DNA of 64,000 nt. It comes from Escherichia coli (lineage in GTDB: Bacteria; Pseudomonadota; Gammaproteobacteria; Enterobacterales; Enterobacteriaceae). Where the stretch lies: assembly GCF_041248615.1 (NCBI RefSeq), contig NZ_CP158426.1; one strand, written 5' to 3'. The number at the start of each line of letters is the position of its first letter. Position 1 is the stretch's first letter. Positions 38,233 to 41,539 of this stretch are shown in pieces. The position numbers and the translations under genes were made by a program. Below the pieces are notes generated by a model, which worked only from the letters and a program-made list of their open reading frames with translations, searched no databases and had not been told where the DNA came from.

Positions 38233-39006
38233 ATGATAAAACGGACGTTATTAGCGGCAGCAATTTTTAGCACATTGCCCGCTTATGCCGGGTTAACTTC
38301 CATTACCGCGGGCTACGATTTTACCGATTATTCTGGCGATCATGGCAACCGTAATTTAGCGTATGCTGAACTGGTGGCGAAAGTTGAAAACGCAACGCTG
38401 CTTTTTAATCTTTCCCAGGGGCGTCGTGATTATGAAACTGAACATTTCAATGCCACTCGCGGTCAGGGTGCGGTCTGGTATAAATGGAATAACTGGCTGA
38501 CAACCCGAACGGGTATTGCCTTTGCGGATAATACGCCGGTCTTTGCCCGCCAAGATTTTCGTCAGGATATTAACCTGGCACTGTTGCCAAAAACGCTTTT
38601 CACGACCGGTTATCGCTACACGAAATATTACGATGATGTCGAAGTCGATGCCTGGCAAGGCGGCGTATCACTCTATACTGGCCCGGTGATCACCAGCTAT
38701 CGCTATACCCATTATGACTCCAGCGATGCAGGTGGTAGTTACAGCAATATGATTTCCGTGCGTCTGAATGACCCGCGCGGCACTGGTTATACGCAACTAT
38801 GGCTAAGCCGCGGAACAGGTGCTTACACCTATGACTGGACGCCAGAAACACGCTACGGCAGCATGAAGAGCGTCAGTTTGCAACGTATTCAACCGCTGAC
38901 TGAGCAACTTAATCTCGGGCTGACGGCAGGTAAAGTGTGGTACGACACCCCAACCGATGATTATAACGGTCTGCAACTTGCAGCCCATCTGACCTGGAAA
39001 TTCTGA
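38233..39006 (+). CDS. yaiO: Outer-membrane beta-barrel protein YaiO
   Basis: 257-aa ORF with signal peptide MIKRTLLAAAIFSTLPAYAG, alternating aromatic/hydrophobic beta-strands, C-terminal ...HLTWKF; RBS AGGAG upstream. Confidence 0.88.
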   Translation: MIKRTLLAAAIFSTLPAYAGLTSITAGYDFTDYSGDHGNRNLAYAELVAKVENATLLFNLSQGRRDYETEHFNATRGQGAVWYKWNNWLTTRTGIAFADNTPVFARQDFRQDINLALLPKTLFTTGYRYTKYYDDVEVDAWQGGVSLYTGPVITSYRYTHYDSSDAGGSYSNMISVRLNDPRGTGYTQLWLSRGTGAYTYDWTPETRYGSMKSVSLQRIQPLTEQLNLGLTAGKVWYDTPTDDYNGLQLAAHLTWKF

Positions 39007-39114
39007 TTCCTTCTGCCGCCCGCTATCCGGGGCGGCCTTCCCTGCCGATTAGCCCCACCCCCTTTCCTCTTTGTTTTCCGACCACATTCACCGGATAAAT
39101 TTTATTCTCCAGTG

Positions 39115-39168
39115 TTATATACTATAGGGGGTATGCATTGACATATAGAATACCCCCCTATAGTATAT
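39115..39168 (+). promoter_or_regulatory. frmRAB promoter with FrmR operator-like inverted repeat
   Basis: Arms ttatatactatagggggtat (39115-39134) and ataccccccctatagtatat (39150-39168) are inverted repeats (5 G versus 6 C); they flank a consensus -35 TTGACA (39138-39143) with TAGTAT 17 bp downstream (39161-39166). Confidence 0.6.
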
Positions 39169-39192
39169 TGCATGCAGATGATGAGGTGCGAA

Positions 39193-39468
39193 ATGCCCAG
39201 TACTCCGGAAGAGAAGAAAAAGGTCCTTACTCGAGTTCGTCGTATTCGGGGGCAGATTGATGCTCTGGAACGGTCGCTGGAGGGTGATGCCGAATGCCGT
39301 GCCATACTCCAACAGATCGCTGCCGTTCGGGGCGCGGCTAACGGGCTGATGGCAGAAGTGCTTGAAAGCCATATCCGGGAAACGTTTGACCGAAATGACT
39401 GCTACAGCCGCGAAGTCAGCCAATCCGTTGACGACACTATTGAACTGGTTCGTGCCTATCTTAAATAG
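39193..39468 (+). CDS. frmR: Formaldehyde-responsive repressor FrmR (CsoR/RcnR family)
   Basis: ORF track 39172-39468; start placed at ATG 39193 ([30 protein letters not shown], giving 91 aa). Confidence 0.93.
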
Positions 39469-39472
39469 CTGA

Positions 39473-40612
<1,140 letters not shown>

Positions 40613-40705: not shown

Positions 40706-41539
40706 ATGGAACTCATTGAAAAACATGCCAGCTTTGGCGGCTGGCAAAATGTGTATCGGCATTATTCCCAATCACTGAAATGTGAAATGAATGTCGGCGT
40801 CTATCTCCCACCAAAAGCCGCAAGTGAAAAATTGCCGGTGTTGTACTGGCTTTCAGGGCTGACTTGCAACGAGCAGAATTTCATTACTAAATCGGGGATG
40901 CAGCGTTACGCGGCGGAGCACAACATTATTGTTGTTGCGCCGGACACCAGTCCGCGAGGCAGTCATGTCGCAGATGCTGACCGTTACGATCTCGGGCAAG
41001 GTGCCGGGTTTTACCTGAACGCAACGCAAGCGCCGTGGAATGAACATTACAAAATGTATGACTATATCCGCAACGAGCTGCCGGATTTAGTGATACAACA
41101 TTTTCCGGCAACGGCCAGAAAGTCTATCTCAGGTCATTCTATGGGCGGGCTGGGCGCACTGGTGCTGGCGTTACGTAATCCAGATGAATATGTCAGCGTC
41201 TCGGCGTTTTCGCCCATTGTCTCCCCATCGCAAGTACCGTGGGGACAGCAAGCCTTTGCCGCATATCTTGGTGAAAATAAAGAGGCCTGGTTGGATTACG
41301 ATCCGGTGAGCCTTATTTCACAAGGTCAACGCGTTGCGGAAATCATGGTTGATCAGGGGTTGAGTGATGATTTTTACGCAGAACAGCTGCGGACTCCAAA
41401 TCTTGAAAAGATCTGCCAGGAGATGAATATCAAGACGTTAATCCGTTATCACGAGGGTTATGATCACAGCTATTATTTTGTCTCCAGTTTTATTGGCGAG
41501 CATATTGCCTACCACGCCAATAAACTGAATATGCGTTAA
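40706..41539 (+). CDS. frmB: S-formylglutathione hydrolase FrmB (esterase D family)
   Basis: 277-aa ORF; serine hydrolase motif GHSMGG. Confidence 0.95.
   Translation: MELIEKHASFGGWQNVYRHYSQSLKCEMNVGVYLPPKAASEKLPVLYWLSGLTCNEQNFITKSGMQRYAAEHNIIVVAPDTSPRGSHVADADRYDLGQGAGFYLNATQAPWNEHYKMYDYIRNELPDLVIQHFPATARKSISGHSMGGLGALVLALRNPDEYVSVSAFSPIVSPSQVPWGQQAFAAYLGENKEAWLDYDPVSLISQGQRVAEIMVDQGLSDDFYAEQLRTPNLEKICQEMNIKTLIRYHEGYDHSYYFVSSFIGEHIAYHANKLNMR

Follow-up and report, generated by a model that had tools for sequence, protein, structure and literature searches.

The inverted repeat of the Escherichia coli frmRAB promoter as two probable, facing FrmR sites, the distal one here one base short

The inverted repeat at positions 39115-39168 of a 64-kb stretch of Escherichia coli DNA (the whole stretch that was analysed, hereafter the window) is very probably the operator of frmRAB, in which two type I sites of the CsoR/RcnR family, each following the pattern ATAC-N9-GTAT, lie in opposite orientation. 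The comparisons of homologous promoters described below favour treating the 54-bp palindrome as a pair of self-contained 17-bp sites, one lying upstream of the -35 and the other covering the -10. Conservation is shown below for the motif itself, for the strict N9 spacing, and for the placement over the -10. The unequal G and C runs of the two arms in the window (G5 and C6) are not a property of the operator; they reflect a rare one-base deletion, or an assembly error, relative to a near-universal G6.

Each site comprises a G/C run between short inverted half-sites that are rich in A and T; the distal site lies just upstream of the TTGACA -35 hexamer, and the proximal site contains the TAGTAT -10 hexamer. 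In the proposed mechanism, as long as formaldehyde is absent, FrmR tetramers would occupy both sites, RNA polymerase would be blocked, and the operon, including frmR itself, would be off. Formaldehyde would cross-link Pro2 to Cys35 between subunits and remodel the DNA-binding face, whereupon FrmR would leave the DNA and frmRAB would be transcribed. Presumably one tetramer binds per site, with repression through occlusion of both the -10 and the -35. The features on which this reading draws are as follows.

38233-39006: yaiO (above the curated NCBIfam cutoff); its stop codon lies 110 nt upstream of the repeat
39119-39134, no strand assigned: distal (left) FrmR type I site (Denby et al., 2016, Fig. 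6a), ATAC-TATAGGGG-GTAT, with an N8 spacer here
39127-39131, plus strand: G5 run, inside the distal site
39138-39143, plus strand: -35 hexamer TTGACA, between the two FrmR sites
39149, plus strand: polymorphic base; most E. coli have C, whereas the window and K-12 have A
39150-39166, no strand assigned: proximal (right) FrmR type I site, ATAC-CCCCCTATA-GTAT (N9), overlapping the -10 hexamer
39153-39158, plus strand: C6 run, within the -35/-10 spacer
39161-39166, plus strand: -10 hexamer TAGTAT, the last six bases of the right FrmR site
39171-39174, plus strand: probable transcription start region, placed from the position of the -10 and from the repeat centre at -29 relative to the predicted start (Denby et al., 2016)
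39183-39188, plus strand: Shine-Dalgarno-like GAGGTG, ending 4 nt before the frmR ATG
39193-39468, plus strand: frmR, formaldehyde-responsive CsoR/RcnR-family repressor of 91 aa (NF008464, 189.2 bits against a cutoff of 133, residues 1-91)
39503-40612, plus strand: frmA, S-(hydroxymethyl)glutathione dehydrogenase (TIGR02818, 743 bits)
40706-41539, plus strand: frmB (fghA), S-formylglutathione hydrolase (TIGR02821, 399 bits)

Anatomy of the repeat and its promoter

The stretch 39115-39168 reads TTATATACTATAGGGGGTATGCATTGACATATAGAATACCCCCCTATAGTATAT. Within it, a repeat finder returned an exact 15-nt inverted repeat (ATATACTATAGGGGG at 39117-39131 and CCCCCTATAGTATAT at 39154-39168) with 22 nt between the arms, and allowing a single-base bulge (one extra C) extends the arms to 18 nt (39117-39134) and 19 nt (39150-39168), out to TAT/ATA. 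The original prediction, which proposed a near-perfect 19/20-bp inverted repeat, was right about the repeat itself but not about the lengths and letters of its arms. The right arm had been written with seven C, a sequence absent from the window, where the real arm is 19 nt long and has the six C that the prediction gave in words; the first two bases of the left arm (TT, 39115-39116) fall outside the complementary stretch. The predicted inequality of the homopolymer runs, with five G at 39127-39131 and six C at 39153-39158, does exist in the window. This is the only perfect inverted repeat with arms of at least 15 nt and a loop of at most 40 nt in the 64 kb, and 100 first-order Markov resamples of the window contained on average 0.02 such repeats; the operator repeat is therefore beyond chance expectation.

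As had been predicted, the arms bracket a perfect TTGACA -35 (39138-39143), with TAGTAT (39161-39166) 17 bp downstream. The two hexamers match the consensus at 10 of 12 positions and form the sole promoter-like site within 38900-39600; the start is predicted, and the function of the pair as a promoter rests on published in vitro transcription from Pfrm. The 15 nt that separate the left and right FrmR sites contain the -35, and the end of the proximal site is 26 nt upstream of frmR. It is the facing orientation of the two sites that produces the long palindrome. In consensus E. coli the distal site reads ATAC-TATAGGGGG-GTAT, with an N9 spacer, and the spacer is N8 in the window because its G run is five. 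A C at 39149 lengthens the perfect palindrome to 21 nt (GGGGGGTATGC and GCATACCCCCC). Since the C6 run lies inside the -35/-10 spacer, a change in its length would alter promoter spacing as well.

The definition of a type I (or type 1) operator includes one single G/C tract, three to eight bases long (PMC3902906), a range that holds both the G5 and C6 runs of the window and the G6 and C6 runs of consensus E. coli. [quoted passage not shown] No further ATAC-N8/9-GTAT site that could serve as an additional FrmR target was found in the 64-kb window beyond the promoter pair.

Several other observations were made in the window. The only other inverted repeat with arms of at least 13 nt and a short loop (13-nt arms, 4-nt loop) lies at 25881-25911, within the 85 nt between iprA and a split autotransporter pseudogene, and is possibly a terminator. 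The autotransporter gene (approximately 25949-30233; ehaB in a relative) is divided by an IS3-family insertion, and its halves are incomplete pseudogenes in the RefSeq annotation. At approximately 35795-36205, a PIG-L deacetylase family gene in the position of yaiS is annotated as truncated, with its C-terminus missing, and this is likewise so in a relative.

The repressor and its published operator

The identities of frmR, frmA, frmB, and yaiO were taken from NCBIfam models, whose curated cutoffs all four exceed by a wide margin, and from the RefSeq annotation of identical DNA; the DNA of the locus is 100% identical to that of E. coli NRZ14408 (NZ_LT599825.1). The FrmR encoded in the window is identical to the crystallised protein (full-length match to PDB 5LBM, residues 1-91, E 4e-55) and has the same RefSeq protein accession as in K-12-like strains. 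Its translation retains all of the sensing residues Pro2, Cys35, and His60.

The operator, the palindrome, and their relation to the -35 and -10 are already published. A large inverted repeat centred at -29 was described as tandem CsoR/RcnR type I FrmR sites with the form ATAC-N9-GTAT (Denby et al., 2016; Sci Rep 6:38879, PMC5146963), and this is the same repeat. The proposal of an operator within the promoter, with an FrmR site upstream of frmRAB, is thus supported both by this description and by the identification of the downstream gene as frmR (NF008464), followed by frmA and frmB. In the same study, FrmR bound a Pfrm fragment with a Kd of ~220 nM, as compared to ~3600 nM for unrelated DNA, the FrmR-Pfrm complex dissociated in the presence of formaldehyde, and in vitro transcription of frmRAB was inhibited by FrmR and relieved by formaldehyde (PMC5146963). 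It should be noted that the sites were assigned there by sequence inspection and modelling rather than by a footprint. Passages in reviews that cite the sort-seq mutagenesis of Pfrm (Rohlhill et al., 2017, ACS Synth Biol 6:1584) mention that "several critical repressor binding sites" were found. No base-resolution footprint of E. coli FrmR was found in the literature covered, which did not extend to the sort-seq study of Pfrm. That study by Rohlhill and co-workers from 2017 reportedly delimited two repressor sites of 19 bp, the first upstream of the -35 and the second overlapping the -10; these would presumably be exactly the two arms described here.

The K-12 Pfrm operator (PMC5146963) is the same locus, with an identical FrmR and a sequence that is the same but for one base. 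It shares with the window the two G/C-rich sites flanked by ATAC/GTAT and the large inverted repeat that they form, which surrounds the -35 and covers the -10, but the distal site of the window has G5 instead of G6 and hence N8 instead of N9. By our own count the site starts are 32 bp apart in strains with G6/C6 and 31 bp apart here, and the published figure is 31 bp between centres (PMC5146963).

As relayed in part by later papers, the operator of E. coli RcnR in the rcnR-rcnA intergenic region consists of tandem TACT-G6-N-AGTA sites (Iwig and Chivers, 2009, via PMC3902906 and PMC5146963). It resembles the FrmR operator in serving a repressor of the same family, in having two sites per promoter, and, to the extent that those papers describe it, in the unbroken G/C run of five to six bases between short AT-rich inverted half-sites. 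In these same accounts, the RcnR half-sites are TACT/AGTA around a 7-bp core and the two centres are 19 bp apart, whereas the FrmR half-sites are ATAC/GTAT around a 9-bp core that includes TATA and the centres are ~31-32 bp apart. Unlike the RcnR sites, the FrmR sites are mutually inverted and so make one long palindrome, and the effector is formaldehyde rather than Ni/Co. A second comparison is provided by Salmonella enterica, where the frmRA promoter (frmRAPro) carries a C6 tract within a T/A-rich inverted repeat (Osman et al., 2015, 2016; PMC4528141, PMC5016687). There, FrmR no longer binds when one flanking repeat is mutated, and its binding is weaker in the presence of formaldehyde (PMC4528141, PMC5016687). 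The Salmonella FrmR is 52% identical to that of E. coli, and the authors regard the two as polyphyletic and their operator-promoter sequences as distinct; in Salmonella a single 33-bp probe is bound by two tetramers, in contrast to the two separated sites of E. coli (PMC4528141, PMC5016687).

FrmR sites across species

A total of 80 loci that encode relatives of the window's FrmR, drawn from one genome per species, were compared. A homolog of frmA lies directly downstream in 75 of them, and ATAC-N7-11-GTAT occurs within 130 nt upstream of frmR in 68, against a background of 0.009 per 130 nt in the remainder of the flanking DNA that was fetched. The half-sites are separated by nine bases in 83 of the 89 sites, by eight in 3, and by ten in 3. 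In most loci the proximal site lies at a comparable distance from the ATG, between -43 and -51 in more than 50 of the 68, and it overlaps a TATAGT or TAGTAT -10. The exact motif is absent from 12 of the 80 loci, most of which have one-base variants such as GTAC...GTAT or ATAC...CTAT. Of the surrounding elements, TTGAC(A/G) at the -35 position is kept in loci of Enterobacterales and of the Brucella type, and GAGGT upstream of the ATG is kept in Enterobacterales. The repeat is also present in essentially all E. coli and in other Escherichia, such that the conservation among frmRAB-carrying genomes that was expected of an FrmR operator was indeed observed.

Two sites are present in 21 loci, from Escherichia, Citrobacter, Klebsiella, Pantoea, Edwardsiella, Enterobacter, Providencia, Morganella, Serratia, Erwinia, Aeromonas, Deefgea, and Paraburkholderia. 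They are mostly inverted, and the cores of the two arms co-vary: both are TATAGTGGA in Edwardsiella, where the symmetry is perfect, and both are TATAGGGGG in E. coli. Enterobacterales mostly have two inverted sites, and Alphaproteobacteria have one site over the -10, between the -35 and the -10; in Brucella and Ochrobactrum this single site fills the whole of that space (TTGAC-ATACTCCCCCATAGTAT-ATAG). Most FrmR loci outside the Enterobacterales have a single site, still over the -10.

These architectures bear on the possibility that the whole 54-bp palindrome is one operator, which either a bridging tetramer engages through both of its faces or a cooperative pair of tetramers recognises only when the symmetry is exact. 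Denby et al. (2016) pointed out that, at a separation of 31 bp, one tetramer might contact the two sites through its two faces (PMC5146963), and such a model would sit well with the perfectly symmetric arms (G6/C6, 21 nt in most E. coli) and with the recurrence of the inverted layout and of arm-core co-variation in Enterobacterales and Aeromonas. The reading is nevertheless judged improbable. Most non-Enterobacterales loci keep just the one site over the -10; the start-to-start spacing in two-site promoters takes values of 23, 32, 33, 34, 35, and 40 bp, such that helical phasing is not conserved; the two sites of Erwinia are direct repeats; and each arm alone is an ATAC/GTAT pseudo-palindrome that fits the type I definition. 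Because of the single-site species, the variable spacing, and the direct repeats of Erwinia, two separable sites are preferred over an obligatory 54-bp unit.

The same comparison weighs on a second possibility, namely that the repeat is a structural element unlinked to FrmR, either a cruciform or a hairpin that ends read-through from yaiO. The region does fold well as single-stranded DNA (-13.6 kcal/mol, z-score -4.2 relative to shuffles), and its position 110 nt beyond the yaiO stop codon would suit a terminator. An intrinsic terminator was rejected, however, as no T-run follows the stem, the loop is 16-22 nt, and 38900-39600 contains no terminator-like site. Moreover, conservation tracks frmR and not yaiO: strains with fbpC or other DNA upstream still have an intact repeat, as do other genera with unrelated upstream genes. 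It is the ATAC-N9-GTAT motif that is conserved, and single-site species have no long hairpin. Of all the explanations considered, a structural role is the one given the least credence, and the repeat is taken here as a pair of FrmR sites.

Some loci in this set stand apart. In Pantoea, Edwardsiella anguillarum (plasmid 1), Enterobacter, and Morganella the regions upstream of frmR are near-identical and the FrmR proteins ~90% identical, and one of these regions sits on a 127-kb plasmid; near-identity across genera suggests a horizontally moving frmR-frmA cassette with a two-site operator. A Citrobacter MAG, Klebsiella grimontii, and Maribrevibacterium encode an FrmR that is 91% identical to the E. 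coli protein, but frmA does not follow directly; the distal site in these loci is N10, and the two sites are 40 bp apart. The regulated genes in these three may differ. In Lysobacter and relatives, a motif variant (ATACTCCCCCCCACTATG) runs straight into the ATG of frmR, which suggests that the transcript is leaderless and that the operator covers the start codon. The comparative picture as a whole was not found in the literature covered, and the regularity of N9 across species, the division into one-site and two-site promoters, and the list of rare N8 and C5 forms constitute only mildly new material.

Operator tract lengths in E. coli

The region of the locus was found in 5,415 of 5,426 complete E. 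coli genomes. One further record, NZ_CP195335.1 (42.9 kb, counted among plasmids), carries yaiO and the frmR promoter at its very end and is probably a chromosomal fragment rather than a plasmid-borne copy. Tract lengths were counted with core queries of 37-39 nt, which are blind to flanking SNPs and unable to seed across a length change. By this count, G6 is present in 5,153 complete genomes and G5 in 11, the latter from unrelated strains on at least three haplotype backgrounds; G7 was not found among the 5,426 genomes, and C5 occurs in 12, on the majority background. The symmetric G6/C6 form accounts for ~99.8% of the E. coli genomes that match at the G tract. A K-12-like strain has G6 and with it a perfect palindrome. 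A 96-nt haplotype query returned only 4 of the G5 genomes, as other SNPs split the haplotypes. For C7, and for C5 on the K-12 (A39149) background, 100 evenly sampled records and 80 metagenome contigs set an upper bound of a few per cent. The 98 full-length rows among those records all have the G6/C6 length except for the top-ranked G5 match, and both arms are invariant in the sampled strains while adjacent bases vary.

The metagenome contigs were retrieved with a pattern that fixes operator bases and were used for tract lengths and for the upstream poly-C tract only, not for operator conservation. Six G are present in 77 of the 80 contigs and five in 2, both of these being low-coverage, short-read G5/C6 contigs; G6/C6 is found in 75, no variants in C-run length were found among the 80, and C occupies 39149 in 72. 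A third homopolymer, a poly-C tract at 39053-39062 between yaiO and frmR, lies ~60 bp upstream of the operator; it reads CCCCACCCCC in the window, as compared to C10 in K-12. This tract is hypervariable, with lengths of C6 to C10 and several interrupted forms among 55 E. coli loci.

Since the nearby poly-C tract varies from C6 to C10 while the operator runs stay at six, the latter are constrained and do not behave as a slippage switch. It had been predicted that the G5/C6 tract could vary by slippage, and the comparison of tract lengths across strains that it called for speaks against this: G6/C6 is near-universal. A stronger form of the idea, in which the G and C runs are a slip-strand (contingency) switch that toggles frmRAB between strains or within populations, is considered very unlikely. 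Shorter alleles do exist at both runs, in genomes and, for G5, in metagenome contigs, and their occurrence on different haplotype backgrounds indicates that they arose, or were called, more than once. Contingency tracts are marked by appreciable length polymorphism, which the operator runs do not show, as each shorter allele is at ~0.2%, no longer G allele was seen, and the sampled rows are uniform apart from the one G5 match. Tolerated slippage is plainly visible at the poly-C tract of these very loci. Finally, the scatter is of deletions only and includes assemblies with other single-base defects (FORC_081 in frmR; tauB/tauC in this one), which resembles homopolymer assembly errors. The runs are therefore read here as fixed parts of the two FrmR sites.

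The G5 of the window may be a rare real allele or a homopolymer assembly error. The overall pattern of G5 and C5, deletion-only and scattered with both runs affected at the same frequency, would suit an artefact, as would the G5 assembly FORC_081, in which frmR itself is annotated as frameshifted. At 33447, at the tauB/tauC junction on the minus strand, one base that relatives possess is missing and the ATGA stop/start overlap is lost with it, such that tauB is longer by four codons and tauC is left with a CTG start. This deletion is either a private mutation or an assembly error; its 46-nt context is unique to this assembly among the 5,426 genomes, which is suspicious and suits an artefact but is no proof of one. 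Conversely, the 49 kb around the locus contain no frameshifted genes in the RefSeq annotation, and G5 recurs in the two short-read metagenome contigs, both of which would suit a real allele. Three single-base indels, the one at 33447 among them, were counted in 22 kb relative to a relative at 1.2% divergence, a divergence that makes the count undiagnostic of assembly error.

If real, G5 gives the distal site a non-canonical N8 spacer, a spacing seen in only 3 of the 89 homologous sites, and should weaken FrmR binding at that site; it leaves the -35/-10 spacing and the proximal site intact. It is doubtful, though less so than a switch, that the G5 and C5 alleles are real, recurrent slip-strand mutations that retune basal expression of frmRAB. 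Were this the case, G5 would disrupt the strictly conserved N9 geometry at the distal site, C5 would in addition reduce the -35/-10 spacer to 16 bp, and rare strains would have constitutively higher or lower formaldehyde detoxification. The natural N8 and C5 alleles, if real, would represent ready-made spacing mutants.

Formaldehyde biosensors and synthetic methylotrophy already make use of Pfrm as an engineered part. The reference state of its operator is perfectly symmetric (G6/C6, with 21-nt arms in most strains), and the asymmetry seen in the window should accordingly not enter models of FrmR recognition. As no protein-DNA structure is cited in the literature covered, the near-invariant 9-bp spacing between ATAC and GTAT across Proteobacteria offers models of DNA recognition by a CsoR/RcnR tetramer a concrete geometric constraint.
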